From Escherichia coli (GTDB lineage Bacteria; Pseudomonadota; Gammaproteobacteria; Enterobacterales; Enterobacteriaceae): a stretch of DNA of 64,000 nt. Below are positions 2,219 to 32,117 of the stretch, piece by piece. The number at the start of each line of letters is the position of its first letter. Positions within the stretch are counted from its first letter, which is position 1. The notes beneath the pieces were generated by a model. It made no database searches. It was not told where the DNA came from and worked only from the letters and a program-made list of their open reading frames with translations. The stretch lies in the NCBI RefSeq assembly GCF_013122565.1, contig NZ_CP053258.1. One strand, given 5' to 3'. Position numbers and translations under genes: made by a program.

Positions 2219-2241
2219 TGTGATTTTTCCATAAATCATGA

Positions 2242-3828: not shown

Positions 3829-3852
3829 AAAAAATCCCGGCACCAGGCCGGG
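3829..3852 (-). terminator. Rho-independent terminator downstream of ybhL
   Basis: GC stem cccggc/gccggg (3836-3841 / 3847-3852) with 5-nt loop; A-run 3829-3834 on plus strand gives the T-run after the hairpin on the minus strand. Confidence 0.65.
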
Positions 3853-3872
3853 ATCAGCAGGAAGAAGAGAAT

Positions 3873-4577: not shown

Positions 4578-4676
4578 GACGATCTCCTGAAGATATAAGG
4601 AATATCTTAAGGATACTGCAAAATGATGAGGCTGTGCATCGACGCAGCGTAAACGCATGTACTGAGCGGTGAAATT

Positions 4677-4703
4677 GCCGGATGCAGCGGTGCCTTATCC
4701 GGC
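4677..4703. repeat. REP-like palindromic element (gccggatg...ccttatccggc)
   Basis: Typical E. coli REP consensus in the ybhL-moaE spacer. Confidence 0.5.
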
Positions 4704-4713
4704 TAACAAAAAA

Positions 4714-5166
4714 CTACCAGCGTTTTGCTGCCTGCTGATCGCTCTCCCGAGCTTCGACCCAGCGGTCGCCTTCAGGCGTGGCTTCGCGCTTCCAAAACGG
4801 TGCGCGGGTTTTGAGATAATCCATAATAAACTGCCCGGCTTCAAACGCACTGCTGCGATGCGCACTGGTGACACCGACAAAAACGATTTCATCGCCCGGC
4901 CATAATTCCCCGATGCGGTGAATCACCGTGACGCGCCCCAGCGGCCAGCGGTTACGCGCTTCATAGACAATTTCTGCCAGTGCTTTTTCAGTCATCCCCG
5001 GATAGTGTTCGAGGGTTAATGCTTTGACGCTGTCGCCCAGGTTATGGTTGCGCACCTTACCGGTAAAGGTGACTACCGCACCGTCTTCGTCACACTCAGC
5101 CAGCCACGGGTACTCTTCACCTACACTGAACGGCTGCGGGCCGACAACAATTTTGGTTTCTGCCAT
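4714..5166 (-). CDS. moaE: Molybdopterin synthase catalytic subunit MoaE
   Basis: 150-aa ORF, recognised sequence, operon position. Confidence 0.93.
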   Translation of the reverse strand: MAETKIVVGPQPFSVGEEYPWLAECDEDGAVVTFTGKVRNHNLGDSVKALTLEHYPGMTEKALAEIVYEARNRWPLGRVTVIHRIGELWPGDEIVFVGVTSAHRSSAFEAGQFIMDYLKTRAPFWKREATPEGDRWVEARESDQQAAKRW

Positions 5167-5167
5167 C

Positions 5168-5413
5168 TTAACCTCCGGTTACCGGCGGGAAGAAAGCTAC
5201 TTCGTCGCCGTCAGTCAGCGAATGGTCAAAACTCACCAGCGTCTGGTTGACGGCAGCCAGCAATTTGCCATCTTCCAGCGCCAGCGCCCAGCGTTCGCTC
5301 TGCGCAGCCAGATGCTGGCGTAACGCTTCAACGGTTGGGAAATCCGCAGCCACTTCGGTTGCATCTGTTCCCACCAACTCGCGCACCTGGGCGAAAAAAA
5401 GAACTTTAATCAT
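5168..5413 (-). CDS. moaD: Molybdopterin synthase sulfur-carrier subunit MoaD (81 aa, C-terminal GG)
   Basis: ORF 5168..5476 with internal start [13 protein letters not shown]; ends ...PPVTGG. Confidence 0.92.
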
Positions 5414-5891
5414 CCGCTTCCACCTTAAAGTCACCCGACTTTCCGCCGCTCTTCGCCAGCAAACGTACCGGACCAATCACCATATCTTTTTGCACCGCTT
5501 TACACATGTCATAAATGGTCAGCGCCGCCACGGAGGCCGCAGTTAACGCTTCCATTTCGACACCGGTTTTCCCGGTCAGGCGGCATAAGGTTTCTATACG
5601 TACCCGATTGTGCTCCGGCTCAGCCTGTAAATTGACTTCAACTTTGCTGAGCATCAGCGGGTGACACAGCGGGATCAGATCCCACGTGCGTTTTGCCGCC
5701 TGAATACCGGCAATACGCGCAGTGGCAAATACGTCGCCTTTGTGGTGGCGACCATCAATAATCATCGCCAGCGTCTCGCTGCGCATGGTGACAAAGGCTT
5801 CGGCGCGCGCTTCACGCACGGTTTCTGCTTTGGCGGAGACATCCACCATGTGCGCTTCGCCAGCGGCGTTGATATGGGTCAGTTGCGACAT
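5406..5891 (-). CDS. moaC: Cyclic pyranopterin monophosphate synthase MoaC
   Basis: 161-aa ORF, recognised. Confidence 0.93.
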
Positions 5892-5893
5892 AC

Positions 5894-6406
5894 TTATTTC
5901 TTCAAATGTGGATGGAAATTACACGGACGCGTACGGGCATCCAGCTGCGGCGCGATGATATTTTCCCATGCGGTACGGCACGCTTTGGTCGAACCCGGCA
6001 TGGCAAAAATCAGCGTTTTGTTAGCGACGCCCGCTACCGCACGAGATTGTAACGTGGAAGTGCCAATCTCTTCGAACGACAACATCCGGAACACTTCACC
6101 AAAACCTTCCACTTCACGGTCGAACAACGGCAGCAGCGCTTCAGGAGCCTGATCACCTTCCGTCAGGCCAGTACCACCCGTAATCAATACCACTTGTACA
6201 TCGTCGCTGGCGATCCACGCAGATACCTGAGCGCGAATAGCGTAGCGGTTTTCTTTCACAATGGCTTTATCGACAACGTGATGGCCCGCTTCTTGCGCCG
6301 AATCGCGCAAATAGTGACCGGAGGTATCGTCTTCTTCACCGCGCCGATTAGAAACCGTAAGAATAGCAATACGGGTCGGGATAAATTCAGTGCTTACCTG
6401 ACTCAT
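5894..6406 (-). CDS. moaB: Molybdenum cofactor biosynthesis protein MoaB
   Basis: 170-aa ORF, recognised. Confidence 0.93.
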
Positions 6407-6427
6407 CTGATCTCTCCTTTTGACGTT

Positions 6428-7417
6428 TTAGCCGCCAATGTACGATAAGTTTTGTGTAATACCGGTGTTGTTTTGATGCAGGAAATGGGTCTGTTTCTTC
6501 TCCCGCAGCGCCGCTGAAATACGCGCTTCCAGCGCCTGTTGCTGGGTATCGTCTTCCAGCAGATCGCGCAGGTTAACGCCGCCCTCACCAAACAGGCAGA
6601 GATGGAGTTTACCAATGGAGGAAACGCGCAGGCGGTTGCAAGTGGCGCAGAAGTCTTTTTCATACGGCATGATAAGGCCAATCTCTCCAGCGTAATCCGG
6701 ATGACAAAAGACTTGCGCGGGACCGTCGCTGCGTTGACGTAATTGGTGGATCCAGCCGCGACGCAGTAGCTCGTCACGCAGAACCTGACCAGAGATGTGA
6801 TGCTTACGGAAGAGCTCGCTGCCCTCGCCCGTTTCCATCAGTTCGATGAAACGCAGCTGGATGGGACGATGCTGGATCCAGTCCAGAAAGGTGTCGAGCT
6901 GGTGATGGTTGACATCGCGCATCAGCACGGTATTGACTTTGACCTTCTCAAAACCGGCCTCAAATGCAGCATCGATCCCTGCCATGACCTGGTTGAATTT
7001 ATCCTGCCCGGTAATGGCATGAAACTGGCGAGCGTCGAGACTATCAACACTGACGTTAATGCCAGTAAGTCCCGCATCGCGCCAGTTCGCCACGTCGCGT
7101 TCCAGACGGTAACCATTGGTGGTGACCGCAATCTGACAGATAGCGTTGTTTTCCCGCACAGCGGCGATGATATCGGTAAAGTCGCGGCGTAAAGACGGCT
7201 CACCGCCTGTCAGGCGCACTTTTTCGGTGCCCAGACTGGCGAAGGCGCGCGTAACCCGGCGAATTTCATCGACGGTAAGGAAGCCTTTATTGGTGACGCC
7301 GCTCGGTTTGTAGCCTTCCGGCAGGCAGTAGGTGCAACGAAAGTTACACACATCGGTAATCGACAGGCGCAAGTAGTAAAACTTACGCGCAAATGCATCA
7401 GTCAGTTGTGAAGCCAT
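6428..7417 (-). CDS. moaA: GTP 3',8-cyclase MoaA (radical SAM), 329 aa
   Basis: ORF 6428..7498 with start at MASQLTDAF; CxxxCxxC motif (CNFRCTYC). Confidence 0.93.
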
Positions 7418-7419
7418 GT

Positions 7420-7570
7420 ACACCTTTCCAGATACGGGAGGCGAAGTCATTTCTTCCTTCGCCCTGGTGGCAATCTTTACGAGCATTGTCACGGCCAAAG
7501 CACCGTATCAGTTGACCCAGGTGCAGAGGCTAGAGTGTTTAGTAGTTAAGCCGATACTAGCGTGTAAACG
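7420..7570 (-). ncRNA. moaA 5' leader; expected position of the molybdenum cofactor (Moco) riboswitch
   Basis: Established knowledge that the E. coli moaABCDE leader carries the Moco RNA motif; leader present here but structure not folded by me; boundaries approximate. Confidence 0.5.
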
Positions 7571-7753
7571 AGATTTTTACCATCCACACTTTCGCTATGT
7601 AATCATGTATATAGCGTCATGATCGTGCTATTTCGCTACAGAATAAGGGAAAATGGCGGTTTTACTTTGATATACATCATCAGGGAGGCATAGCGTACAT
7701 CGTCCTTTAGAGGTAGAAGAAAATAGTTTGTATCCTCAATATTGGCAGGTTAA

Positions 7754-8722
<969 letters not shown>

Positions 8723-8778
8723 TGGGAAGCCGAAAGAAAATTCCTGCTTCCCATTGAAGACAAAGTACACGTTGTTCA

Positions 8779-8877
8779 TGCCGGATGCGGCGTGAACGCC
8801 TTATCCGGCCTACAAACCGCGCAAATTCAATATATTGCGGAGAAAATGTAGGCCTGATAAGCGTAGCGCATCCGGCT
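8779..8877. repeat. REP/BIME-like palindromic repeats between convergent ybhK and uvrB
   Basis: ccggatgcggcgtgaacgccttatccggcctac ... gcctgataagcgtagcgcatccggc. Confidence 0.6.
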
Positions 8878-8913
8878 GTTTTCCGTTTGTCATCAGTCTT
8901 CTTCGCTATCCTG

Positions 8914-10935
8914 TTACGATGCGGCAATAAACAACTCACGCAACTGATGCAACTGGTCACGAATTTGCGCCGCTTCTTCGAACTCCAGATTCTGCGCGTG
9001 TTGCATCATCAACCCTTCCAGTTCATGGATCTTCTGCTGCAACGCTTTAGGCGACATATCCATCGGCACATTATCCGGCTCAACAATCGGTCGCGATTTT
9101 ACTCTGCCCTTCGCTTTGGTTTTGGCGATGTTCTGCCCCAGCGCCAGGATATCGACCACTTTCTTGTTCAAGCCTTGCGGCGTAATGCCGTGTTCCTCGT
9201 TGTACTTCTGCTGTTTCTCGCGGCGACGTTCGGTTTCGCCAATCGCTTTCGCCATTGATGGGGTGATCTTATCGCCGTAGAGAATCGCTTTACCGTTAAC
9301 GTTACGTGCCGCACGACCAATGGTCTGGATCAACGAACGTTCGGAACGCAGGAAGCCTTCTTTGTCAGCGTCGAGGATCGCCACCAGCGACACTTCCGGC
9401 ATATCCAGACCTTCGCGCAGTAAGTTGATCCCTACCAGCACGTCGAACTCACCCAGACGCAAGTCGCGGATGATTTCCATACGCTCGACGGTGTCGATAT
9501 CCGAGTGAAGATAACGCACGCGCTCGCCATGTTCTTCAAGATATTCCGTGAGATCTTCCGCCATTCGCTTGGTCAGTGTGGTGACCAGCACGCGTTCGTT
9601 AATTGCCGCTCGCTGACGAATCTCCGAAAGAAGATCATCAACCTGTGTCGCCACCGGCCGCACTTCAATTATCGGGTCAAGCAATCCGGTTGGACGCACC
9701 ACCTGATCCACCACATCGCCGCCGGATTTTTCCAGCTCATAATTACCCGGCGTCGCCGAAACATAGATGGTTTGCGGCGCTAATGCTTCGAACTCTTCAA
9801 ATTTCAGCGGACGGTTATCCAGCGCCGATGGCAGGCGGAAGCCGTACTCCACCAGCGTCTCTTTACGCGCCCGGTCACCGCGATACATGCCGCCAATTTG
9901 CGGAATGGTGACGTGAGATTCATCGACGACCAGCAGCCCATCGGCAGGCAGGTAATCAAACAGCGTCGGCGGTGGCTCACCCGGTCCACGACCGGAGAGG
10001 AAGCGCGAGTAGTTTTCAATCCCCGAACAGTAGCCCAGCTCGTTCATCATCTCCAGATCAAACTGGGTACGCTGGGTCAGCCGCTGCTCTTCCAGCAGTT
10101 TGTTGTTTTCCAACAGCACCTTGCGTCTGGCGGCCAGTTCTTCTTTGATCTCCTCCATCGCCTGTACGATGCGCTCACGTGGCGTGACGTAGTGCGTTTT
10201 CGGGTAGATGGTAAAACGTGGAATCGTGGAAATAATCTGCCCGGTTAGCGGGTCAAATAACGACAATCGTTCCACTTCCTCGTCAAACAGTTCCACGCGA
10301 AGTGCAATGTCATCCGATTCTGCCGGGAAGATATCTATCACCTCGCCACGAACGCGGAAAGTACCACGCTGGAATGCCTGATCATTACGAGCGTATTGCA
10401 ACTCCGCCAGTCGGCGCAGGATCGCACGTTGATCGATAATCATGCCGACCGTGAGGTGGAGCATCATCTTGAGATATAAATCAGGGTCGCCCAGACCATA
10501 AATCGCGGAAACAGAGGCCACTACAACCACATCACGCCGCTCCAGCATCGCTTTGGTGGCGGATAAACGCATCTGCTCAATATGTTCGTTAACCGAGGCA
10601 TCTTTCTCAATGAAGGTGTCGGAACTCGGTACATAGGCTTCCGGCTGATAGTAGTCGTAGTAGGAAACGAAATACTCCACCGCGTTTTCCGGGAAGAACT
10701 CTTTCATTTCGCCATAGAGCTGGGCCGCCAGCGTTTTGTTGGGCGCCAGCACCATCGTTGGACGCTGTAGGTCAGCAATGACATTGGCGATGGTGAAGGT
10801 TTTCCCGGAGCCCGTCACGCCAAGTAACGTCTGGTGCGCCAGGCCATCTTCCAGCCCCTCTTCGAGACGTCGAATCGCCTCTGGCTGATCGCCAGAAGGT
10901 TTAAAAGCGGAATTCAGTTTGAACGGTTTACTCAT
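8914..10935 (-). CDS. uvrB: Excinuclease ABC subunit B UvrB
   Basis: 673-aa ORF; [21 protein letters not shown]..., helicase motifs (GVTGSGKT). Confidence 0.96.
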
Positions 10936-16493: not shown

Positions 16494-16551
16494 CGGGAAG
16501 TCAGCGAGAGGGTTTCTGGCTACACTTTCTGCAAACTAGAAAGGAGGGTTC

Positions 16552-17028
16552 ATGAAACTCATCAGTAATGATCTGCGCGATGGCGATAAGTTGCCACATC
16601 GTCATGTCTTTAACGGCATGGGTTACGATGGCGATAATATTTCACCGCATCTGGCGTGGGATGATGTTCCTGCGGGAACGAAAAGTTTTGTCGTCACCTG
16701 CTACGACCCGGATGCGCCAACCGGCTCCGGCTGGTGGCACTGGGTAGTTGTTAATTTACCTGCTGATACCCGCGTATTACCGCAAGGGTTTGGCTCTGGT
16801 CTGGTAGCAATGCCAGACGGCGTTTTGCAGACGCGTACCGACTTTGGTAAAACCGGGTACGATGGCGCAGCGCCGCCGAAAGGCGAAACCCATCGCTACA
16901 TTTTTACCGTTCACGCGCTGGATGTAGAACGTATTGATGTCGATGAAGGTGCCAGCGGCGCGATGGTCGGGTTTAACGTTCATTTCCACTCTCTGGCAAG
17001 CGCCTCGATTACTGCGATGTTTAGTTAA
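16552..17028 (+). CDS. ybhB: PEBP-family protein YbhB
   Basis: 158-aa ORF, recognised. Confidence 0.9.
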   Translation: MKLISNDLRDGDKLPHRHVFNGMGYDGDNISPHLAWDDVPAGTKSFVVTCYDPDAPTGSGWWHWVVVNLPADTRVLPQGFGSGLVAMPDGVLQTRTDFGKTGYDGAAPPKGETHRYIFTVHALDVERIDVDEGASGAMVGFNVHFHSLASASITAMFS

Positions 17029-17118
17029 TCACTCTGCCAGATGGCGCAATGCCATCTGGTATCACTTAAAGGTATTAAAAACAACTTTTTGTCTTTTTAC
17101 CTTCCCGTTTCGCTCAAG

Positions 17119-17133
17119 TTAGTATAAAAAAGC
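17119..17133. other. attB: Bacteriophage lambda attB core, unoccupied
   Basis: ttagtataaaaaagc = reverse complement of the lambda core GCTTTTTTATACTAA, in the ybhB-ybhC spacer (gal-bio interval); no prophage genes present. Confidence 0.85.
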
Positions 17134-17179
17134 AGGCTTCAACGGATTCATTTTTCTATTTCATAGCCCGGAGCAACCT

Positions 17180-18463
17180 GTGAACACATTTTCAGTTTCC
17201 CGTCTGGCGCTGGCATTGGCTTTTGGCGTGACGCTGACCGCCTGTAGCTCAACACCGCCCGATCAACGTCCTTCTGATCAAACCGCGCCTGGTACCTCTT
17301 CTCGCCCGATTCTGTCGGCAAAAGAAGCGCAGAATTTCGATGCTCAACACTATTTTGCATCCCTGACACCAGGTGCGGCAGCGTGGAATCCTTCCCCGAT
17401 TACCCTGCCTGCGCAACCTGACTTTGTTGTCGGCCCGGCGGGTACTCAAGGTGTAACGCATACCACGATTCAGGCGGCGGTAGATGCGGCAATTATCAAG
17501 CGTACCAACAAGCGCCAGTATATTGCCGTGATGCCTGGTGAGTATCAGGGAACGGTATATGTCCCTGCCGCTCCGGGTGGAATTACTCTGTACGGTACAG
17601 GTGAAAAACCGATTGATGTGAAGATTGGGCTTTCCCTTGATGGGGGCATGAGCCCTGCCGACTGGCGTCATGACGTCAACCCGCGCGGCAAATATATGCC
17701 AGGTAAACCAGCGTGGTATATGTACGATAGCTGCCAGAGCAAACGCAGCGACAGTATCGGTGTTCTCTGCTCTGCGGTCTTCTGGTCACAAAACAATGGC
17801 CTGCAACTGCAAAACCTGACCATCGAAAACACGCTGGGCGATAGCGTAGATGCAGGTAACCATCCGGCGGTGGCACTGCGTACTGATGGTGACCAGGTAC
17901 AGATTAACAACGTTAACATTCTCGGTCGTCAGAACACCTTCTTTGTCACCAACAGCGGTGTGCAGAACCGTCTGGAAACCAACCGTCAGCCGCGTACGCT
18001 GGTGACCAACAGCTACATTGAAGGGGATGTGGATATCGTTTCTGGTCGCGGCGCAGTGGTGTTCGATAACACCGAATTCCGCGTGGTGAACTCACGTACC
18101 CAGCAAGAAGCATATGTGTTTGCACCGGCTACGCTGTCTAACATCTATTACGGTTTCCTCGCCGTAAACAGCCGTTTCAATGCTTTCGGTGATGGTGTGG
18201 CGCAACTGGGCCGCTCGCTGGATGTTGATGCCAATACCAACGGTCAGGTGGTGATCCGTGATAGTGCCATCAACGAAGGTTTTAACACGGCTAAACCGTG
18301 GGCCGATGCGGTGATCTCTAATCGTCCGTTTGCGGGTAATACCGGCAGCGTAGATGATAACGACGAACTACAGCGCAATCTGAATGACACTAACTACAAC
18401 CGCATGTGGGAATACAATAACCGCGGCGTGGGTAGTAAAGTGGTTGCAGAGGCGAAGAAGTAA
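17180..18463 (+). CDS. ybhC: Outer-membrane lipoprotein YbhC (pectinesterase-like), lipobox LTAC
   Basis: 427-aa ORF, signal peptide with lipobox, recognised. Confidence 0.9.
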   Translation: MNTFSVSRLALALAFGVTLTACSSTPPDQRPSDQTAPGTSSRPILSAKEAQNFDAQHYFASLTPGAAAWNPSPITLPAQPDFVVGPAGTQGVTHTTIQAAVDAAIIKRTNKRQYIAVMPGEYQGTVYVPAAPGGITLYGTGEKPIDVKIGLSLDGGMSPADWRHDVNPRGKYMPGKPAWYMYDSCQSKRSDSIGVLCSAVFWSQNNGLQLQNLTIENTLGDSVDAGNHPAVALRTDGDQVQINNVNILGRQNTFFVTNSGVQNRLETNRQPRTLVTNSYIEGDVDIVSGRGAVVFDNTEFRVVNSRTQQEAYVFAPATLSNIYYGFLAVNSRFNAFGDGVAQLGRSLDVDANTNGQVVIRDSAINEGFNTAKPWADAVISNRPFAGNTGSVDDNDELQRNLNDTNYNRMWEYNNRGVGSKVVAEAKK

Positions 18464-18472
18464 AAAAGAAAA

Positions 18473-18532
18473 CCCGATAGTCTGAACCATCGGGTTAATG
18501 AAACAGGGCGCTATATTTCATAGCGCCTTTTT
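18473..18532. terminator. Back-to-back rho-independent terminators between convergent ybhC and ybhJ
   Basis: Hairpin cccgat...atcggg preceded by an A-run (serves minus strand); hairpin ggcgctat...atagcgcc followed by TTTTTTT (serves plus strand). Confidence 0.7.
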
Positions 18533-20794
18533 TTACATCTGACGGTTTTTATTGAAGTTAATCAAACTACCCGCCTTGATAATCTCGCGCTCTTCAGCAG
18601 TCAGATTTTCCATATAGAGCGTAATTTCCGTTACCGGCGCATCTTCATGGATCACATAACCTTTAAACGTCGTACCCGGATTATCCAGCGCCGCTTTAAT
18701 GCCAGGGATGTAAATGTAATCCCCCACTTCAAAGGTTGGCACTTCCGCCATCTGCAGAGGTAACATCCCCCAGTTGATGACGTTTGAACGGTAGCGTTTA
18801 GTCGCGTACTCCTCGGCAATATTCGCCAGACCGCCAATCACACGCTGGCAGCTCGCCGCCTGTTCACGCGCAGAACCATCGCCTGGTTTCACCGCATAGA
18901 CCATACTGCCAATTTCAGTTTGCAGCGGATCAATATGCTCCTGACCAGCAATCTGCTTAATGCGCGCAAACACCTCTGTCAGCTCGCTGACATTCCCCGC
19001 CAGACGCTGATTTTCCAGCTCAGCAGTCGCTTTACTTCTGCCAACATAACCGGGATCGCGGCGTGACAGGGTAAACTCCGCCAGACCAATCGGATTTGAA
19101 CGATAAGAAGAGGTTTCACCGGAAGGAATCAATTCGTCGGTGGTGGTCACTTCGTCGAGGATCTTCGAGCACACTTTGAGGACGATATTGTCAGTCAGCG
19201 CACCTAATTCCGGCCAGTCTTTAATGTTCGGTCCGTAAATCAGCGGTTGCTGAGTTGCCCCTTTCACAAAGCCCTGATAAACACGGTTTTTATACGGCGT
19301 TACATCGAAGGCGTACTCCGGCACGTTGTCCCAGCAATCAAGTTCGCTGGCAGAAGTTAAATAGCCACCGTTTGCCGCAGTCGCAGCGATAGAACGAGCG
19401 TCCATCAACGCCACCGCTGACATCTGCCCATTAGCTGGCTTAGAGCCTTCGCGGTTCGGGAAGTTACGCGTGGTGTGGCGAATACTCAAACCGTTGTTGA
19501 TTGGCGTATCGCCCGCGCCAAAGCATGGGCCGCAGAACGCGGTTCTGATGATTGCGCCTGCGCCAATCAAATCTGCTACCACACCTTTTTTGGCGAGATC
19601 CATAAACACCGGCTGTGATGACGGGTAAACCGCCAGCGAGAAGGTGTCGTTACCACAGGATTGACCGCGCAGCGCATTTGCTGCGGCGATAACGTTTTCA
19701 TAGTTACCGCCAGAACAGCCCGCGATAATCCCCTGCTGCACTTTCAGGCGACCGTTTTCCACTTTGTCCAGCAGCGAGAGTTTGGCTTTACCGTGCGCCA
19801 CGCGCTCGGACTCAATTTCAATCTCACGCAGAATGTCGGTCAGGTTCTGGTTCAGCGTGTCGATTTCATACACGTTGCTCGGGTGGAACGGCAGCGCAAT
19901 CATTGGTTTGATGGCGCTTAAATCAACGCTGATGCAGCCATCGTAGTACGCCATCGGTTGAGGGTTAAGCTGGCAGTAATCCTGGCCGCGACCGTGGAGC
20001 GCCAGCCAGTTATGGACTTCTTCATCGGTTTGCCAGACAGAACTTAAACAGGTCGTTTCAGTGGTCATAACGTCAACGCTGTTACGGAAATCGGTAGAGA
20101 GCTCAGCAACGCCGGGACCTACGAATTCCATCACTTTGTTTTTGACGTAGCCGTTTTTGAACACGGCACCGATGATAGCCAACGCCACATCCTGCGGCCC
20201 CACATACGGCGCTGGTTTTCCGGTCAGATGCACCGCAACAACTCCCGGATAGTCGATATCCCAGGTGTCATTAAGCAGCTGTTTTACCAACTCACCGCCG
20301 CCCTCACCGACTGCCATTGTCCCTAATGCACCGTAACGGGTGTGGCTGTCTGACCCGAGGATCATTTTGCCCCCGCCTGCCATCATCTCACGCATATATT
20401 GATGGATGACCGCAATATGCGGAGGCACAAAAATACCGCCATAACGCTGAGCTGCCGATAAACCAAAAACATGGTCATCACCGTTAATGGTGCCGCCGAC
20501 GGCGCAGAGTGAGTTATGGCAGTTGGTCAGCACATACGGCAGCGGGAAACGTTCCATTCCGGACGCTTTAGCGGTCTGTACAATACCAACAAAGGTAATA
20601 TCGTGAGAGGCTAATGAATCAAACTTAATTTTAAGTTTATCCATATTTCCGGACGTATTATGAGAAGAGAGAATAGACCAGGCAATAGTGCCTTTTTTGG
20701 CTTCTTCTTTTTTAATTTGGCCGGTGAAATGTTCTTCGGCAATTATTTCGTTATTACTGGCGAGAAACACGCCTTTTTCAGATAACTTGATCAT
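18533..20794 (-). CDS. ybhJ: Aconitase-family putative hydratase YbhJ, 753 aa
   Basis: ORF 18533..20818 with start at [10 protein letters not shown]. Confidence 0.88.
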
Positions 20795-20851
20795 TAAATG
20801 CTCCAGATATCTGCGCACCGTGAAGTGCGCAGAAAGATAATGAAGGGATAT

Positions 20852-22285
20852 TTACAGCATGTTCCAGCCGATCAGCATATTCCACCACCATACGCCGAGG
20901 GTGATATGCACCAGGAAGGTTAATATCGTCAGTACCGCACCGACCAACCACCAGGATTTAATATCGTTGTAACCCACGCCAAAGATGACCGGACCTGCCG
21001 CGCCGCCATAGTGAGTAACCATGCCGCCATAGGAGTTGGAGAACAACAGTGCCAGCGCGGTTAACATTAACGGTGCGCCGGAGACGTTCGCCAGCATGGC
21101 AAATACCGGTAACATAGCAACGATATAGGCACTACCGGAAGCGAAGAAATAACGCACGATGATGCTAAGGAAAATAATAACGAAGAAAGCAACGTTTCCG
21201 TGACCATCAAATGCCAGGTTATTTTTAAAGACTTCAGCTAACCATTCGAAGAATTTAACTTTCGATAATAAGGAACTTAAGCCGATAATACCGCCGTACC
21301 AGATTAAGGTATTCCAGCCGCCTTTATTTTTAACCACGTCTTCCCAGGTAACGATACCCAGCAGCAGCATGGTCGCCATAACAACAATAGCCACTGAAGA
21401 TTCATCAACCCCCAGAGACTTACTGAAAATCCAGCCCAGCAGCGCCAGCACAAAGACACCGAGCAGCATTTTTTCGCGGATTTTCATCGGTCCCAGTTCG
21501 GCAAGGCCCGCTTTGGCGATGGTTTTGTTATCCACCTTCTTAATTTCTGGCGGATACATGGTGTAAATCACCAGCGGGGTGACCAGCAGCATAATGATGC
21601 CCGGCAATCCGGCTGCCAGCGCCCATCCACCCCAGCTAATTTGCAGGTGCAGAATGTCGTTGATCATTTTCAGCGCCAGAATGTTCCCCGCCATTGCGGT
21701 AAAGAACATATAGCTGGTGGTTTTGGTGACCATGTAAATGGACATCATCAGGTAATGTCCGACACGACGCGGACTTTTTTCCGGTTCGGACCCCAAAGCC
21801 ACCGCCACACTGTTGATGATCGGTAACACAATGCCGCCCGCACGCGCGGTGTTAGACGGTGTTGCCGGAGCCAGTACCAGATCGAGGAATACCGTAACGT
21901 AACCCAGACCCAGCGTGGTGTTACCGATTTTACCAATCAGCAGATAGGCAATACGTTTACCTAAACCGGTGGTCACAAATGCGGCGCTTAAGGTAAACGC
22001 CGAGAACACCAGCCAGGTGGTACCTGAAGAGTAACCGCTTAATACGGCGGTGGTTTTAAACGCACCGTCGGATAAGTTACCGACCACCACCATGGAGGCA
22101 GCAACGGCAATTAACAGTACGACAGGTTCCGGGAAAGGCTTGATAACCAGACCCACAATGGCCGCCAGGTAAATACCAAAAAGCACCCACGCCAGTTCGC
22201 TTAATCCTGCCGGAGCTGGCATAAAGCCAATAATACATGGGATCGCTAATATCAGAATTAGCTTCCATAACGATTTCTTATTCAT
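20852..22285 (-). CDS. ybhI: DASS-family anion transporter YbhI
   Basis: 477-aa polytopic membrane ORF, recognised. Confidence 0.88.
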   Translation of the reverse strand: MNKKSLWKLILILAIPCIIGFMPAPAGLSELAWVLFGIYLAAIVGLVIKPFPEPVVLLIAVAASMVVVGNLSDGAFKTTAVLSGYSSGTTWLVFSAFTLSAAFVTTGLGKRIAYLLIGKIGNTTLGLGYVTVFLDLVLAPATPSNTARAGGIVLPIINSVAVALGSEPEKSPRRVGHYLMMSIYMVTKTTSYMFFTAMAGNILALKMINDILHLQISWGGWALAAGLPGIIMLLVTPLVIYTMYPPEIKKVDNKTIAKAGLAELGPMKIREKMLLGVFVLALLGWIFSKSLGVDESSVAIVVMATMLLLGIVTWEDVVKNKGGWNTLIWYGGIIGLSSLLSKVKFFEWLAEVFKNNLAFDGHGNVAFFVIIFLSIIVRYFFASGSAYIVAMLPVFAMLANVSGAPLMLTALALLFSNSYGGMVTHYGGAAGPVIFGVGYNDIKSWWLVGAVLTILTFLVHITLGVWWWNMLIGWNML

Positions 22286-22360
22286 TTAAAATCCTGTTCT
22301 TTCTGTATGACTCATACAGAAGTCCTTTATTGATTGTCCTTATCCTGACAACGAATTTTT

Positions 22361-23413
22361 TCAGGGAAGATAAACTTCACCGGAAAATATTTTTCTGGTC
22401 GTCCGAATAACAGATGCGCGTAACGTCGTGGCATCCTGACCTTCATTACTTAAATGAACGTCGAGCGCACCACTGGGGTGTTCAATATTGATATTGCCAT
22501 ATCCTACAGAAGGGACGATTTGTCGGGTGACGGTGCCTTCCAATGCACAACTACTGGAAATAGCAATAGCACCGGTTATCGCCAGCGCGCGATGGCAAGA
22601 ATGCGGCATAAAATAACGCACATTAATTGCCCCGCCTTTCTGCGCTGGAGAAATAAGCACAGGTTTAGGGATAACCATATTACTGACATCACCTAAGCCC
22701 ATTGCTTTACCCGCTTGTAGACGGATAGATTCAATGCGGGCTAATAATGCTTTGTCGGCATCCAGTTCCGCCGGTAATTCATAACCTGTTTTTCCCAGAT
22801 ATTCAGCCGGAATAATGACGACTGGCATCGCCATATCGATACAGGTCACCGGGACATCGTCAAAATAATCGATCTGATTATCAGTCGGGAAAACTTTTCC
22901 GGTTTTGGTTCCAGCGGCATTCAGGAAAGTGAGCGCAACCGGTGCGGCAGTACCCGGTACGCCGTCAATTCTGGCACTACCCTCGTACTCGACAACACCA
23001 TTTGGCGTTTGCACATCAGCTTCGATGAACGTACCCGTATTGACGTTGCGGATACGTACGCGAGTAACTGGCGAAGTCGCTGCAATCAAACCATTTTCAA
23101 TGGCGAATGCCCCAACACCAGACAGCATATTGCCGCAGTTAGGCGTGGTATCGACACGTTGCTCATGGACGATAACTTGAGCAAACAGATAATCAACATC
23201 AGCACGCGGATCGCTGGAACGGCTAATAATGGCGACTTTACTGGTCAGTGGATTACCGCCGCCAATACCGTCAATTTCCAGATCGTTACCGGAACCCATA
23301 ATTGCCATCAATATTTTATCGCGCTGCGTTTGATCTTCGGGTAAATGTTCCGCTAACAGGAACGCGCCCCTCGAGGTTCCACCTCGCATCATCACGCAGG
23401 GTATTTTTTTCAT
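22361..23413 (-). CDS. ybhH: PrpF-family putative isomerase YbhH
   Basis: 350-aa ORF, recognised. Confidence 0.88.
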   Translation of the reverse strand: MKKIPCVMMRGGTSRGAFLLAEHLPEDQTQRDKILMAIMGSGNDLEIDGIGGGNPLTSKVAIISRSSDPRADVDYLFAQVIVHEQRVDTTPNCGNMLSGVGAFAIENGLIAATSPVTRVRIRNVNTGTFIEADVQTPNGVVEYEGSARIDGVPGTAAPVALTFLNAAGTKTGKVFPTDNQIDYFDDVPVTCIDMAMPVVIIPAEYLGKTGYELPAELDADKALLARIESIRLQAGKAMGLGDVSNMVIPKPVLISPAQKGGAINVRYFMPHSCHRALAITGAIAISSSCALEGTVTRQIVPSVGYGNINIEHPSGALDVHLSNEGQDATTLRASVIRTTRKIFSGEVYLP

Positions 23414-23595
23414 AATAATGCCCTCAATTTAAAAACATAACTTATTGCGATATGGTTACATTAAGGACAAAACCGCACTAATGACTTTATCTTCACGATT
23501 AATTACTTTTTTTCATTAATTTAAGTGATTAAAATGCAGTTAAACGGTTTAAAGCGAAACGCTAAAAGAGAACCTTTCCATTTTCTGGAGTAGTA

Positions 23596-24552
23596 ATGAA
23601 GCATGAATTATCAAGTATGAAGGCATTTGTCACTCTGGCAGAGTCGACTTCATTTAACAACGCCGCCAAATTACTTAACATTACACAACCCGCGTTAACG
23701 CGAAAAATAAAAAAGATGGAAGAAGATTTACATATTCAACTTTTTGAGCGTACAACTCGCAAGGTTACATTAACAACAGCGGGGAAAATGTTGCTTCCTG
23801 AGGCGCGGGAATTAATAAAAAAATTTGATGAAACACTTTTTAATATTCGGGAAATGAATCATTACCATCGTGGTATAGTGACATTAGCGTGTATTCCGAC
23901 CGCCGTGTTCTATTTCTTGCCATTGGCGATCGGCAAATTTAATGAGCTATATCCCAATATTAAAGTGCGGATTCTGGAACAAGGCACGAATAATTGCATG
24001 GAATCGGTGCTGTGCAACGAATCTGATTTTGGCATAAACATGAACAACGTCACAAATTTATCTATCGATTTTACTCCCCTGGTCAACGAGCCATTCGTGC
24101 TGGCCTGTCGGCGTGACCATCCTTTAGCCAAAAAGCAGCTAGTGGAATGGCAGGAGTTAGTCGGTTACAAAATGATTGGCGTACGCTCCTCCAGCGGCAA
24201 CCGATTGTTGATTGAACAAAATTTGGCCGACAAACCCTGGAAACTGGACTGGTTTTACGAAGTGCGCCATCTTTCAACGTCATTAGGACTGGTGGAGGCT
24301 GGACTGGGAATTTCGGCACTACCAAGCCTGGCAATGCCTCATGCGCCCTCTTCTTCTATTATTGGTATCCCCCTGGTAGAACCAGTAATTCGCCGCACAT
24401 TGGGTGTGATTCGCCGTAAAGATGCAGTGCTTTCTCCAGCAGCAGAACGCTTTTTTGCGTTACTTATTAATTTGTGGACTGACGATAAGGATAATCTGTG
24501 GACCAAGATCGTTGAACGTCAGAGACAGACATTACAGGTGATGGGAAAATAA
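23596..24552 (+). CDS. ybhD: LysR-type transcriptional regulator YbhD
   Basis: N-terminal HTH (FVTLAESTSFNNAAKLLNITQPALTRKIKKMEEDL), divergent from ybhH. Confidence 0.88.
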   Translation: MKHELSSMKAFVTLAESTSFNNAAKLLNITQPALTRKIKKMEEDLHIQLFERTTRKVTLTTAGKMLLPEARELIKKFDETLFNIREMNHYHRGIVTLACIPTAVFYFLPLAIGKFNELYPNIKVRILEQGTNNCMESVLCNESDFGINMNNVTNLSIDFTPLVNEPFVLACRRDHPLAKKQLVEWQELVGYKMIGVRSSSGNRLLIEQNLADKPWKLDWFYEVRHLSTSLGLVEAGLGISALPSLAMPHAPSSSIIGIPLVEPVIRRTLGVIRRKDAVLSPAAERFFALLINLWTDDKDNLWTKIVERQRQTLQVMGK

Positions 24553-24590
24553 TCCCGGAGCGGGAGATGCCGCGCCAGGATTATCAACAA

Positions 24591-25622
<1,032 letters not shown>

Positions 25623-25740
25623 CTAAAATTAGTCGCTTTTGGCGGTGAATGCTGAATTAAAACGCAGAATTTTGTCCGATAGTGGTATCGGTGTACCATT
25701 CGCGCAGACGAAAATTCTTAACCTTAATCTGGAATACGCC

Positions 25741-26559
25741 ATGACCACACGCGTGATTGCTCTCGACTTAGACGGCACCTTATTGACCCCGAAAAAGACC
25801 CTGCTTCCTTCATCGATAGAAGCCCTGGCCCGCGCTCGCGAAGCAGGCTATCAATTAATCATCGTCACAGGTCGCCATCACGTCGCTATTCATCCTTTTT
25901 ATCAGGCGCTGGCGCTGGATACACCTGCTATTTGCTGTAATGGCACCTATTTGTATGATTATCATGCAAAAACCGTGCTGGAAGCGGACCCAATGCCCGT
26001 TAATAAAGCCCTGCAACTCATTGAGATGCTCAATGAACACCACATTCACGGTCTGATGTATGTGGATGACGCGATGGTTTATGAGCACCCGACCGGGCAT
26101 GTCATTCGCACGTCTAACTGGGCGCAAACCCTGCCGCCGGAACAGCGTCCGACTTTCACACAAGTCGCTTCTCTGGCTGAAACGGCGCAACAAGTTAACG
26201 CCGTATGGAAGTTCGCCCTGACGCACGATGACCTGCCGCAATTGCAGCATTTTGGTAAGCATGTCGAACATGAACTGGGACTGGAGTGTGAATGGTCCTG
26301 GCACGATCAGGTTGATATTGCACGCGGCGGCAACAGCAAAGGTAAACGTTTGACGAAATGGGTTGAGGCGCAAGGCTGGTCGATGGAAAACGTCGTGGCG
26401 TTCGGCGATAACTTTAATGATATCAGTATGCTGGAGGCCGCTGGTACAGGCGTGGCGATGGGCAACGCCGATGACGCGGTAAAAGCGCGCGCCAACATTG
26501 TGATTGGTGATAACACCACCGACAGCATTGCCCAGTTCATTTATAGCCAACTGATTTAA
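25741..26559 (+). CDS. ybhA: HAD-family pyridoxal phosphate phosphatase YbhA, 272 aa
   Basis: ORF 25639..26559 with start at MTTRVIALDLDGTLL (HAD motif I). Confidence 0.9.
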   Translation: MTTRVIALDLDGTLLTPKKTLLPSSIEALARAREAGYQLIIVTGRHHVAIHPFYQALALDTPAICCNGTYLYDYHAKTVLEADPMPVNKALQLIEMLNEHHIHGLMYVDDAMVYEHPTGHVIRTSNWAQTLPPEQRPTFTQVASLAETAQQVNAVWKFALTHDDLPQLQHFGKHVEHELGLECEWSWHDQVDIARGGNSKGKRLTKWVEAQGWSMENVVAFGDNFNDISMLEAAGTGVAMGNADDAVKARANIVIGDNTTDSIAQFIYSQLI

Positions 26560-27618
26560 TCAGGCGGTTATCGACACACTTTTAATTTGCGCGTACAGCC
26601 ACAGGCCAGGTTTGATCGCCAGTTCATCCCTGGCCCACGGGCTGATACGAGCCCACAGCGTTTTACCGCCGACTTCCAGTTCCACTTCCACCTGGCCGTT
26701 GTCGTCATAACTATTAACAACTTTTGCCCGCAATACGTTACGAATGCTGGTTTGCTGCGGCGGTTGTAAAACCAGAGAAACATCGGAAGCCTGAATGCGG
26801 ATACGTAGCGCAGCTTGCAGCGGTTCGTCCAGCTTATTGACCCACAAATGCTGATCGCCCAGCGCCAGCGCAGTCATCGCGTAATGCGGATGATGCTCAA
26901 GTACCGTCACTTTCAGAATGCTACTTTGTTGCTCTTTCGGCAGCCACGGATTCATCACGCTACTACCCCAGACTTCTTCCAGCGCGCCAAAGGCTTTCAC
27001 CTGACCGTTTTCCAGTACCATCACTCTGTCTGCCAGATGGAGGATCTCATCCAGCGAATGGCTGACATACAACATCGGGATGTTGATTTCCCGCGTCAGA
27101 CGTTGCAGATAAGGCAACAGTTCGCGTTTACGCGGAATATCCAGTGACGCCAGCGGTTCATCCAGCAACAGCAATTCCGGTGCTGTCAGCAAAGCCCGCC
27201 CAATCGCCACGCGCTGTTTTTCGCCTCCGGACAGGCTGCCTGGTAAACGGTCAAGCAACGGTTCAATGCCTAAAAGCGCCACCAGCTTATCGAACTGATC
27301 GACCATACTTTTCGACATGCCGTAGCGCAGATTGCCACGCACTTTGTAATGCGGGAACAGCCGCGCATCCTGAAAAACATAGCCAACGCGACGCTTTTCC
27401 GGCGTCAGGCAGATACCTTTTTCGGCATCATTTAGTACCCGCCCATTGAGGACAATCCGCCCTTTTTGCGGGCGCGTCAGTCCACTGATGGCGTTAATCA
27501 GCGAAGTTTTTCCGGCACCGGATACGCCAAAGATAGCAGTGATGCCATTGGCGGGCAGCGTTTCATTAATGGTCAGGCAATGGTTGCCCAACGTCTGGGA
27601 AAAATTCAGCTCCAGCAT
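26560..27618 (-). CDS. modC: Molybdate ABC transporter ATPase ModC
   Basis: 352-aa ORF, Walker A GVSGAGKT. Confidence 0.94.
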
Positions 27619-27620
27619 GA

Positions 27621-28310
27621 TTAGCGCCCCGCCCGTTCACGGCTGATTCTGGCCAGCCATTCTGAAATCAACAGGGAGATCATCGCCAGCGCAATAGAAA
27701 TAATGCACAGTCTCGCCGCGCCACTTTCCCCGCCGGGGGTCTGGATCAGGGTATACATGGCAGAGGGAATGGTTCGCGTTTCGCCAGGAATGTTCGACAC
27801 AAAGGTGATGGTTGCACCAAACTCACCGAGAGAACGAGCAAAAGCCAGTACCGTACCAACAATAATTCCCGGTAAGGTCAGCGGTAACGTGATAGTAAAG
27901 AAAACGCGCCAGCGCCCGGCCCCCAGTGTTCTTGCGGCCTGTTCCAGTTTGACATCAACCCCTTCCAGCGCCAGACGAATTGCCCGCACCATCAGCGGAA
28001 ACGACATGACGGCGGCAGCGAGAACCGCGCCGCGCCAGCTAAAGGCGAAGGTAATACCAAACCAGTCATACAGACGTTCACCGATAAATCCGCGCCGTCC
28101 CATCGAAACTAATAATAAGTAACCGACGACCACGGGCGGTAACACCAGCGGTAGATGCAGTACGCTGTCGAGCAGAGCTTTGCCCGGAAACGTGTAACGC
28201 ACCAGTAACCAGGCAAAAAAGATCCCAAACGGCAGGCTAAACAGCACAGCCAGGGAAGAAACTTTCAGGCTTAATAAAACTGCCTGCCATTCTGGATCGG
28301 TCAGTATCAT
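27621..28310 (-). CDS. modB: Molybdate ABC transporter permease ModB
   Basis: 229-aa ORF. Confidence 0.94.
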
Positions 28311-29083
28311 TACTTGGTTGTAAATCCGTAATGTTTAAAGATTTCCGCAGCCTGCGGCCCTTTCAAATAATCATAAAATGCTTTCACTGTCGCATTGTTA
28401 TGCCCTTCCACAACAGCAACCGGATATTCCACTTTTTTATGCGAATCTTCCGGGAAGGTGGCAACCACTTTTACCCCTTTGCTGGCAACTGCGTCAGAAC
28501 CATAAACAATGCCCAGCGGCGCTTCATTGCGTTCGACCAACGCCAGCGCGCCACGAACATCTTCCGCCGGAGCCAGTTTCGGGGAGAGCGTATCCCATGC
28601 GCCCAGTTTTTGCAGTGCTTCTTTCGCATAAATGCCAGCGGGGACATGTTCCGGATCGCCAACCGCCAGACGACCGCCATTCAGCAGCGAAGTCCAGTTA
28701 GTTTTGCTGTCGATGGTGAAATCTTTCTGCTCGCTGGCTTTCGGTGCTACAACGACCAGGCTATTGCCGAGCAGTGTCTGACGCGTAGCTGTATCGATCG
28801 CTTTTTTATCAACCGCATAATCCATCCATTTCTGATCGGCAGAAATAAACAGATCCGCAGGGGCACCCGCTTCAATCTGACGGGCGAGAGTAGATGACGA
28901 AGCGAAAGAAGAAACCACATCCACGCCTTTCTCTTTTTTATACTGGGTAGCAATGTCCTGCATTGCGTTAGTCAGTGATGCGGCGGCGAACACCGTGATT
29001 TTCCCTTCATCTGCCAGTGCATTGCCAGCAACAGCGAAAGAGAGTGCCGCCCCGGCAAACAAGTTCAACCATTTACGAGCCAT
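28310..29083 (-). CDS. modA: Molybdate-binding periplasmic protein ModA
   Basis: 257-aa ORF with signal peptide. Confidence 0.94.
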   Translation of the reverse strand: MARKWLNLFAGAALSFAVAGNALADEGKITVFAAASLTNAMQDIATQYKKEKGVDVVSSFASSSTLARQIEAGAPADLFISADQKWMDYAVDKKAIDTATRQTLLGNSLVVVAPKASEQKDFTIDSKTNWTSLLNGGRLAVGDPEHVPAGIYAKEALQKLGAWDTLSPKLAPAEDVRGALALVERNEAPLGIVYGSDAVASKGVKVVATFPEDSHKKVEYPVAVVEGHNNATVKAFYDYLKGPQAAEIFKHYGFTTK

Positions 29084-29092
29084 TGGTAACCC

Positions 29093-29129
29093 CTTAATGT
29101 AACGTTATGTAGGCGACAATATAACGACT
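29093..29129. promoter_or_regulatory. ModE operator at the modABC promoter
   Basis: cttaatgtaacgttatgtaggcgacaatataacgactaa matches the remembered modA operator (CGTTATATTGTCGCCTACATAACGTTACATTAAG on the other strand). Confidence 0.75.
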
Positions 29130-29249
29130 AACTCGGAATTTTCCCAGCAGTTATTGCTAACCTTTGTGAGGTATATAAGAAAAAATATCGGCAGGAAAAG
29201 CAGGAAGTTGAGAAAAAGAAAATGCCCGACTAAGCGGGCATTCAGGGAA

Positions 29250-29417
<168 letters not shown>

Positions 29418-29527
29418 TCATGAGACTATTCTAACCGCTAAGCTCAGAAAAGCACTCCCCTTTTGTGCGGTCAGCTTTGCGTGGCGTTCGTTTTCCGTCA
29501 CAATAAGACTTTTGCCAGGACATTGTT

Positions 29528-30316
29528 ATGCAGGCCGAAATCCTTCTCACCCTTAAGCTCCAACAAAAATTATTCGCCGACCCGCGCCGCATTTCGCTAC
29601 TAAAACACATTGCGCTTTCCGGTTCCATTAGCCAGGGAGCGAAAGATGCCGGTATCAGCTATAAAAGCGCCTGGGATGCCATTAACGAAATGAATCAGTT
29701 AAGCGAGCATACGCTGGTTGAGCGCGCAACAGGCGGTAAAGGTGGCGGCGGCGCGATGCTGACTCGCTATGGTCAACGCCTGATTCAGCTTTACGACCTG
29801 CTCGCCCAGATCCAGCAAAAAGCCTTTGATGTGTTAAGCGACGATGACGCCCTGCCGCTGAACAGCCTGCTGGCCGCGATCTCACGTTTTTCACTACAAA
29901 CCAGCGCCCGTAACCAGTGGTTCGGTACCATCACCGCCCGCGATCATGATGACGTTCAACAGCATGTTGATGTCTTACTGGCTGACGGAAAAACACGCCT
30001 GAAAGTCGCAATTACCGCACAAAGCGGCGCGCGTCTGGGGCTGGATGAAGGCAAAGAAGTGTTGATATTGCTAAAAGCGCCGTGGGTAGGTATTACTCAG
30101 GACGAGACGGTCGCGCAAAACGCCGACAACCAATTACCGGGTATTATTAGTCATATTGAGCGCGGCGCAGAGCAGTGCGAAGTATTAATGGCGCTACCCG
30201 ACGGGCAAACACTATGCGCCACTGTGCCGGTAAATGAAGCGACTACTCTTCAGCAAGGACAGAATGTCACGGCCTACTTTAATGCCGACAGCGTGATTAT
30301 CGCCACGCTGTGCTAA
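29528..30316 (+). CDS. modE: Molybdate-responsive transcriptional regulator ModE
   Basis: 262-aa ORF, recognised. Confidence 0.94.
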   Translation: MQAEILLTLKLQQKLFADPRRISLLKHIALSGSISQGAKDAGISYKSAWDAINEMNQLSEHTLVERATGGKGGGGAMLTRYGQRLIQLYDLLAQIQQKAFDVLSDDDALPLNSLLAAISRFSLQTSARNQWFGTITARDHDDVQQHVDVLLADGKTRLKVAITAQSGARLGLDEGKEVLILLKAPWVGITQDETVAQNADNQLPGIISHIERGAEQCEVLMALPDGQTLCATVPVNEATTLQQGQNVTAYFNADSVIIATLC

Positions 30317-30383
30317 GCGTGTTGACAATTTGTTATGAAACACGTATCCCTGTCAGTAATCGCTGCACAAAATGGGATATAAA

Positions 30384-31856
30384 ATGTCATCGTTGCAAAT
30401 TTTGCAAGGCACGTTTCGTCTTAGCGACACAAAAACGCTGCAATTGCCTCAGCTAACGTTAAACGCGGGTGATAGTTGGGCGTTTGTCGGTTCGAATGGA
30501 AGCGGGAAATCGGCCCTGGCCCGCGCGCTGGCGGGGGAACTTCCGCTTTTGAAAGGTGAACGGCAAAGCCAGTTTTCCCACATCACTCGTCTCTCCTTCG
30601 AGCAATTGCAAAAGCTCGTCAGCGACGAATGGCAGCGGAATAACACCGATATGCTCGGCCCTGGCGAAGATGACACCGGACGCACTACGGCTGAGATCAT
30701 TCAGGATGAAGTAAAGGATGCACCGAGTTGTATGCAACTGGCGCAACAGTTCGGTATTACCGCCCTCCTCGACCGACGCTTTAAATACCTTTCCACTGGC
30801 GAGACGCGAAAAACCCTGCTGTGTCAGGCGCTGATGTCGGAGCCTGACTTGTTGATTCTTGATGAGCCGTTCGATGGCCTGGATGTTGCCTCACGTCAGC
30901 AGCTGGCTGAGCTACTCGCCTCGTTACATCAGTCCGGTATTACTCTGGTACTGGTGCTCAATCGCTTCGATGAGATCCCGGAATTTGTCCAGTTTGCTGG
31001 CGTGCTGGCGGATTGCACGTTAGCGGAAACTGGTGCTAAAGAGGAACTGCTCCAACAAGCACTCGTCGCGCAACTGGCGCATAGTGAACAGCTTGAAGGT
31101 GTGCAACTGCCGGAGCCGGATGAACCTTCAGCACGTCACGCCTTACCCGCCAACGAACCGCGCATTGTGCTGAATAATGGCGTGGTTTCTTATAACGATC
31201 GCCCCATTCTTAATAACCTTAGCTGGCAGGTGAATCCAGGTGAACACTGGCAAATTGTCGGGCCAAATGGCGCGGGAAAATCGACGTTATTAAGCCTGAT
31301 TACTGGCGATCATCCGCAAGGTTACAGCAACGATTTGACGCTTTTCGGCCGACGTCGCGGCAGCGGCGAAACCATCTGGGATATCAAAAAGCATATCGGT
31401 TACGTCAGCAGTAGTTTGCATCTGGATTACCGGGTCAGCACTACCGTGCGTAATGTGATTCTTTCTGGCTATTTTGATTCGATTGGCATTTATCAGGCCG
31501 TTTCGGATCGCCAGCAAAAACTGGTGCAGCAGTGGCTGGATATTCTCGGCATTGATAAACGCACGGCTGACGCTCCTTTCCATAGTCTTTCCTGGGGACA
31601 GCAGCGTCTGGCGCTGATCGTCCGCGCACTGGTGAAACATCCGACGTTGCTTATTCTCGATGAACCACTACAGGGGCTTGATCCGCTCAATCGCCAGCTT
31701 ATCCGCCGTTTTGTTGATGTGCTGATTAGCGAAGGTGAAACGCAATTGTTGTTTGTTTCGCACCATGCTGAAGATGCACCAGCCTGTATTACCCATCGAC
31801 TGGAGTTCGTGCCGGACGGTGAACTCTATCGCTATGTGCTGACAAAAATATATTGA
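30384..31856 (+). CDS. modF: ABC-family ATPase ModF (two ATP-binding domains), 490 aa
   Basis: ORF 30372..31856 with start at MSSLQI; two Walker A motifs (GSNGSGKS, GPNGAGKS). Confidence 0.92.
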   Translation: MSSLQILQGTFRLSDTKTLQLPQLTLNAGDSWAFVGSNGSGKSALARALAGELPLLKGERQSQFSHITRLSFEQLQKLVSDEWQRNNTDMLGPGEDDTGRTTAEIIQDEVKDAPSCMQLAQQFGITALLDRRFKYLSTGETRKTLLCQALMSEPDLLILDEPFDGLDVASRQQLAELLASLHQSGITLVLVLNRFDEIPEFVQFAGVLADCTLAETGAKEELLQQALVAQLAHSEQLEGVQLPEPDEPSARHALPANEPRIVLNNGVVSYNDRPILNNLSWQVNPGEHWQIVGPNGAGKSTLLSLITGDHPQGYSNDLTLFGRRRGSGETIWDIKKHIGYVSSSLHLDYRVSTTVRNVILSGYFDSIGIYQAVSDRQQKLVQQWLDILGIDKRTADAPFHSLSWGQQRLALIVRALVKHPTLLILDEPLQGLDPLNRQLIRRFVDVLISEGETQLLFVSHHAEDAPACITHRLEFVPDGELYRYVLTKIY

Positions 31857-31860
31857 GTCG

Positions 31861-31925
31861 GTAGTGCTGACCGTGCCGGATGTGGCGTAAACGCGTTATC
31901 CGGCCCACGGTCAGACGCATCCAGG
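31861..31925. repeat. REP-like element after modF
   Basis: gccggatgtggcgtaaacgcgttatccggc palindrome. Confidence 0.5.
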
Positions 31926-32019
31926 TATGAAACCGCGTCTTTTTTTCAGATAAAAAGCGCAATCATTCATAAACCCTCTGTTTTATAATCACTTAATCGC
32001 ACATAAAAAATGGCTAAAC

Positions 32020-32117
32020 TCTTGTGTAAACGATTCCACTAATTTATTCCATGTCACACTTTTCGCATCTTTGTTATGCTATGGTTATTTCATACCATAA
32101 GCCTAATGGAGCGAATT
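32020..32117 (+). promoter_or_regulatory. gal operon promoters P1/P2 with external operator OE
   Basis: OE gtgtaaacgattccac at 32024-32039; tatgctatggttatttcatacc promoter region immediately upstream of galE. Confidence 0.85.

Follow-up and report, generated by a model that had tools for sequence, protein, structure and literature searches.

An intact and unoccupied phage lambda attachment site within a conserved sequence block upstream of ybhC in an Escherichia coli chromosome

The window, by which we mean the whole stretch of 64,000 nucleotides of Escherichia coli DNA that was analysed, contains the interval between the bio and gal genes. Towards the bio end of this interval ybhB, annotated as a kinase inhibitor, is followed in the same orientation by ybhC, which encodes a predicted outer-membrane lipoprotein, and the two genes are separated by a spacer of 151 bp (Table 1). 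Within the spacer lies a 15-bp sequence, GCTTTTTTATACTAA, at a distance of 90 bp from the end of ybhB and 46 bp upstream of the GTG start codon of ybhC. Annotation and colinearity with E. coli K-12 MG1655 show the setting to be the canonical one for the lambda attachment site, namely the ybhC-ybhB spacer of the gal-bio interval with the B arm towards gal; since the window is written in the bio-to-gal direction, opposite to the K-12 map, the core is found on its minus strand. The spacer also includes a perfect 9-bp hairpin (CCAGATGGC-gcaat-GCCATCTGG, 17037-17059) located 9 bp past the ybhB stop codon; it lacks a T-run, the terminator scan does not report it, and other genera do not share its sequence.

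The first-pass annotation of this DNA, made from the sequence alone, had placed an exact copy of the lambda core, with no strand given, at this position in the ybhB/ybhC spacer, and we find both its coordinates and its sequence to be right: alignment with the attP core of the lambda genome (NC_001416) reveals no mismatch, and the match is the only one in the 64 kb when up to two mismatches are allowed. An exact copy was recovered in none of 100 dinucleotide-preserving shuffles. When three mismatches are allowed the core is also matched at 28431-28445 and 28932-28946, inside modA, with three matches found and 1.77 expected. Secondary lambda attachment sites, which serve infrequently once attB has been deleted, resemble the core in part, but the modA matches are at the level expected by chance and nothing about them suggests such a function.

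The anatomy of the site can be read directly from the sequence. The minimal attB is defined as 21 bp, and on the minus strand the site and its immediate surroundings read ...GAAGC CTGCTTT/TTTATAC/TAACTTG AGCG..., in which the core-type sites B and B' are inverted with respect to each other and flank a 7-bp overlap. What B, B' and the overlap do when Int binds and cleaves is well established for lambda, and we take the overlap to be the place of the staggered cuts by Int and of strand exchange.

Table 1. Features of the ybhB-ybhC spacer and its surroundings, in window coordinates.
Feature	Coordinates	Strand	Content or basis
bioA-to-galE interval, 15.6 kb	16494..32117		ybhB, attB, ybhC, ybhJ, ybhI, ybhH, ybhD, pgl, ybhA, modCBA, acrZ, modE, modF; colinear with MG1655 and strain Rb-50
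ybhB, PEBP-family 'kinase inhibitor', bio-side flank	16552..17028	+	ORF; RefSeq annotation of 99% identical matches (up to 99.5%)
Conserved block, 38 bp, containing attB, CTTCCCGTTTCGC and TAGTATAAAAA	17101..17138		94-100% per position, 70 sequences
Minimal attB, 21 bp, CTGCTTT/TTTATAC/TAACTTG (B-O-B'), CTGCTTTTTTATACTAACTTG	17115..17135	-	Identical to K-12 MG1655
B' core-type Int-binding site CAAGTTAGT, ybhB/bio side; consensus CAACTTNNT	17115..17123	+	Same in K-12
Variable position, C	17118	-	Window, K-12, E. fergusonii; likewise Rb-50 and E69, with differences from those three further along
Variable position, T	17118	-	BL21, via the attR of phage DN1
Variable position, G	17118	-	67 other species; also Salmonella, with additional differences farther along its B' arm
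Common core (O) of lambda attB, GCTTTTTTATACTAA	17119..17133	-	Identical to attP core, NC_001416 27724-27738, annotated misc_recomb
7-bp overlap TTTATAC, same as that of attP	17122..17128	-	Direct sequence reading
B core-type Int-binding site CTGCTTTTT, ybhC/gal side	17127..17135	-	Shared with K-12 and a natural lysogen's attL
ybhC, pectinesterase-family outer-membrane lipoprotein, gal-side flank	17180..18463	+	ORF; annotation; Pfam PF01095 in homologues

In K-12 the attachment site att-lambda maps between ybhC and ybhB at 17.4 min. The window agrees with it in the core, the 21-bp minimal site, the entire spacer (151 of 151 positions), the genes on either side and its orientation with respect to gal and bio, and while the site itself shows no difference the surrounding genes have diverged by 2.4-3.2%. 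Such identity should not be taken as a sign of special conservation: divergence from K-12 is 3-6% in bioA and bioB but falls to about 1% across ybhB-ybhC, so that the lack of any mismatch in 151 bp is unremarkable, and the mismatch-free run in fact extends to 329 bp (16925-17253). The window as a whole is a mosaic, with 96-98.5% identity to its best match among 5,426 complete E. coli genomes; the 1.1 kb around the site is 99.5% identical to strain Rb-50, whose sequences on either side match at about 96%.

Several other segments of the window can be described briefly. The first ~1.1 kb has matches in few E. coli genomes, where the nearby annotation is of SUKH-4 immunity and pentapeptide proteins, and some segment of positions 1-9000 is present at a median of 33 copies per genome. 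This end of the window contains an ORF without a family match (587-1057), a DUF3969 ORF (1134-1538), three tandem genes of the Bax-inhibitor-1 family (ybhM, 2242-2955; an additional paralogue, 3025-3729; ybhL, 3873-4577), a Moco riboswitch upstream of moaA (7405-7549) and a match to the ES036 sRNA (8814-8855). At 42372-43371 there is a cluster of five genes for tRNA-Lys(UUU) and two for tRNA-Val(UAC), together with three RtT repeats; here the O157:H7 comparison strain has five tRNAs only, and a CpoB/ybgF thermometer is located at 44298-44436. Beside cydA, at about 53288-62953, is a methylaspartate (mesaconate) pathway island encoding glutamate mutase S, L and E, methylaspartate ammonia-lyase, an AtuA-family protein, a DUF4387 protein and a dicarboxylate symporter; the island part is covered to at least 80% in about 1,005 of the 5,426 complete E. 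coli genomes, including O157:H7.

The sequence around the lambda core extends well beyond E. coli. We scanned one genome per species for 100,044 species (GTDB representatives) with the exact pattern CCTGCTTTTTTATACTAANTTNAGCG and obtained matches in 68, the genera including Citrobacter, Enterobacter, Lelliottia, Kosakonia, Phytobacter, Buttiauxella and Cedecea, together with Leclercia, Yokenella, Silvania, Huaxiibacter, Pseudenterobacter and Escherichia. In all of the matched species the motif is found 35-70 bp upstream of ybhC. An alignment was built from the sequences found with the pattern and from four taxa that were sampled through YbhC homology, and thus blind to the upstream sequence, and it defines a block of 38 bp in which conservation is 94-100% across 70 sequences representing at least 15 genera; the search pattern fixed 24 of the 38 positions in 66 of these sequences. 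The flanking spacer is conserved at only 7-60%. High conservation is seen as well at the 13 positions that the pattern leaves free (17101-17110, 17114 and 17137-17138). Moreover, in Trabulsiella and Kluyvera, both sampled through YbhC, the exact lambda core is lost while the flanking CTTCCCGTTTCGC...TAGTATAAAAA is kept. In Salmonella and in the 68 species representatives, those of Citrobacter, Enterobacter, Kosakonia and Buttiauxella among them, the site upstream of ybhC shares with the window its exact core, its B arm and its position; in many of them it borders on the hut operon instead of ybhB.

The block stays with ybhC whichever gene is its other neighbour, be it ybhB, the hut operon or mtlR. 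The hut operon (hutH, hutU, hutC, hutG, hutI) lies between ybhB and the block in Enterobacter, Lelliottia, Citrobacter, Salmonella and Trabulsiella, and in Kluyvera mtlA, mtlD and mtlR occupy the equivalent place with mtlR as the neighbour. The boundary of the rearrangement in the genera with hut or mtl genes is just outside the conserved block.

Only one position of the block, 17118, is hypervariable. It adjoins the core on the B' side and is the fourth base of the B' site, and the distribution of its variants is included in Table 1. The G that prevails outside E. coli is the base present in the P' arm of lambda, and with it the B' site reads CAACTTAGT, like the lambda C' site and the Int consensus; the identity with attP in those species is consequently 19 bp rather than 15 bp.

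These patterns raise the question as to whether the site is primarily a host element, a conserved promoter or operator of ybhC that phages of the lambda family have adopted. This explanation is complementary to the identification of the site as attB rather than exclusive of it, and we regard it as a serious possibility whose chances we put at a little below even. It would further imply that, on integration, the phage P' arm takes the place of the upstream half of the element, with a consequent change in ybhC expression. In its favor are the conservation of the block, unforced positions included, against far more variable flanks, and its position, which is fixed relative to ybhC and independent of the other neighbour, suggesting a ybhC promoter or operator; the retention of CTTCCCGTTTCGC...TAGTATAAAAA in Trabulsiella and Kluyvera despite a broken lambda core is in agreement, and a -10-like TATAAA is present at 17123-17128. 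On the other hand, the -35 position is occupied by a poor sequence, CCTTCC, and the large share of positions fixed by the search pattern weakens the argument from conservation. A consensus scan of 16900-17300 yielded no sigma-70 -35/-10 pair at a threshold of 9 of 12 matches and no intrinsic terminator, and no mapped ybhC transcription start was found in accessible published TSS datasets.

An observation that agrees with this reading, if indirectly, comes from E. coli 83972, in which a 12.5-kb insertion (attB::lsr) 'next to' the lambda attB was accompanied by a drop in ybhC expression, reaching 8- to 10-fold, in three growth phases (log2 changes of -3.4, -3.0 and -1.6; PMC12263705). The same insertion reproduced the H2O2 sensitivity of a ybhC deletion (PMC12263705). 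A position effect is not discussed by the authors of that study (PMC12263705), and the reading of the drop as an effect in cis is our own; the lsr genes themselves could have produced it. A structured RNA leader or known RNA family is rejected, with a fold z-score of +0.64 and no Rfam match at E-values up to 1. Comparison by eye with sigma-E, sigma-54, PhoP box, IHF and HutC motifs gave nothing convincing, and we base no claim on it.

Whatever its role for the host, the site is one at which many E. coli genomes are interrupted, and these natural recombinants map the crossover. The region is continuous in 3,492 of the 5,424 complete E. coli genomes that hold it and is split at the core in about 1,930 (~36%). 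In the split genomes the piece on the ybhC side begins at window position 17115 or 17119 (query 516 or 520), and that on the ybhB side stops at window position 17133 (query 534); the overlapping ends of the two halves indicate that the core is duplicated, as it is in attL and attR. In the lysogen FDAARGOS_433 the genes gam-bet-exo-xis-int adjoin ybhC and the junction is a perfect B-O-P'. Conversely, phage DN1, a bio-transducing derivative of DE3 with an annotated attR, carries P-O-B', and its homology to the window stops exactly at 17133, as does that of the transducing phage vB_EcoP-720R6. Two assemblies that encode a YbhC identical to that of the window, and that are 98.7% identical to it at the DNA level, are lysogenic: both have a B-O-P' junction, and their Int matches that of lambda with 99% identity. 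Neither these lysogens nor E. coli E69 and E. whittamii, which are only 91-93% identical, can be the source of the window. The ybhC/ybhB intergenic site has been described as 'the phage lambda locus' and is among the most island-rich sites in Escherichia (PMC9580842).

With so many occupied relatives, it must be considered whether the core in the window is itself part of a hybrid attL or attR junction, left by a degraded prophage or another element, such that the site is occupied or scarred. The frequency of interruption at attB and the lysogeny of strains with an identical YbhC speak for this, but the arms on either side of the core speak decisively against it. Each is identical to K-12 at 45 of 45 positions and matches the lambda P and P' arms (NC_001416) at only 11-12 of 45. 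Both arms are thus bacterial (B and B') and the site has the form B-O-B', neither attL nor attR. The junctions of lysogens (FDAARGOS_433, BL21(DE3)/phage DN1 and GCA_053839965.1) have the same core and the same bacterial half-arms as the window, but there phage DNA makes up one arm and an int-xis module sits beside ybhC, whereas in the window both arms are bacterial and there is no phage gene. The short distances from the core to ybhB and ybhC leave no room for an insert.

Nor are phage genes present elsewhere in the bio-gal interval. Megablast comparison of positions 11500-36400 with 50,697 phage records identified no phage genes; the strong matches are to host bio genes carried by two transducing phages, with a few short, unannotated, host-like fragments besides. 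Colinearity with MG1655, which we take to be lambda-free, holds from bioD to galM except for two small intergenic indels of ~290 bp in total, and the bioA-galE interval of the window compares with 15.9 kb in K-12. The window is without ~165 bp in the ybhC/ybhJ spacer (18464-18529) and without ~121 bp in the ybhJ/ybhI spacer (about 20819-20851) that are found in K-12 and Rb-50; these stretches may be REP-type elements. Lambda attP is a P-O-P' site of ~240 bp with arm-type Int sites and sites for IHF, Xis and Fis, while attB, which needs ~21 bp, is a simple site without arm-type Int sites or a need for flanking accessory sites. The window site and attP share the 15-bp core and the layout of inverted core-type sites but are otherwise unrelated in their flanks. 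No arm-type Int site (MAGTCACTAT, up to one mismatch) occurs within ~3.5 kb of the core, and the whole window contains six such matches where 4.7 are expected.

Taken together, the bacterial arms, the short spacer and the absence of phage matches across the interval rule out a hybrid junction, which we consider very improbable. The bacterial arms, colinearity and short spacer likewise bear out two further statements of the first-pass annotation, that prophage genes do not interrupt the gal-bio interval and that no lambdoid prophage is integrated at attB, the latter holding for attB itself, other genome sites being a separate matter. That an AT-rich 15-mer unrelated to lambda arose here by chance has nothing to commend it beyond the AT-richness of intergenic DNA, and is dismissed as having a negligible probability by the shuffled sequences, the identity of the flanks to K-12 attB over 151 bp, the canonical synteny and the natural attL and attR junctions that break at the same bases.

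We are therefore nearly certain that this is attB (att-lambda), phage lambda's primary site of attachment to the chromosome, present here as unoccupied B-O-B', a reading that follows from the exact and unique core, the K-12-identical spacer, the bacterial arms, the canonical position and the natural crossovers at the same bases. It is the textbook lambda attB, and as a feature it is already known.

The site is predicted to be competent for recombination on the basis of its identity with the K-12 site, and nothing in the sequence argues against function as a target. If it behaves as established lambda biology leads one to expect, Int would bind the inverted core-type sites B (CTGCTTTTT) and B' (CAAGTTAGT), and the Int-IHF complex (the intasome) assembled on attP would capture the bare attB. 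In both partners Int would then cleave at the borders of the 7-bp overlap that they share, and strand exchange would proceed through a Holliday junction. The inserted phage would be flanked by attL (B-O-P') beside ybhC and by attR (P-O-B') beside ybhB, with int adjoining ybhC. Host factors such as IHF and LamB affect lysogenisation but not the identity of the site. The copy in the window would either have never recombined or have been restored through precise excision; because excision regenerates attB, an intact site does not separate a strain that was never lysogenised from one that has been cured.

The finding of attB itself is of annotation value only. Nothing is currently integrated there, and to judge from its sequence the standard site of this strain should be available to lambda-type prophages, DE3 or CRIM-type constructs. 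The wider interest lies in the surroundings of the core. We tentatively propose, as an interpretation with somewhat less than an even chance of being correct, that the core is embedded in a 38-bp control element of ybhC (CTTCCCGTTTCGC-N6-TAGTATAAAAAAGCAGGCT) which is shared by most Enterobacteriaceae and is the source of the conservation of the core. This would provide a ready-made target for lambda-type phages in many genera, the '15-bp core' would be a peculiarity of E. coli arising from position 17118, and insertions at attB would detach the upstream half of the ybhC control region and change the expression of the gene. Lambda attB is widely used as a supposedly neutral site for chromosomal integration, and insertions there may carry an unrecognised cis effect on ybhC. 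If the proposal is true, any insert in attB would alter ybhC expression, be it a prophage, DE3 or a CRIM-type construct, and attB would be no neutral landing pad.
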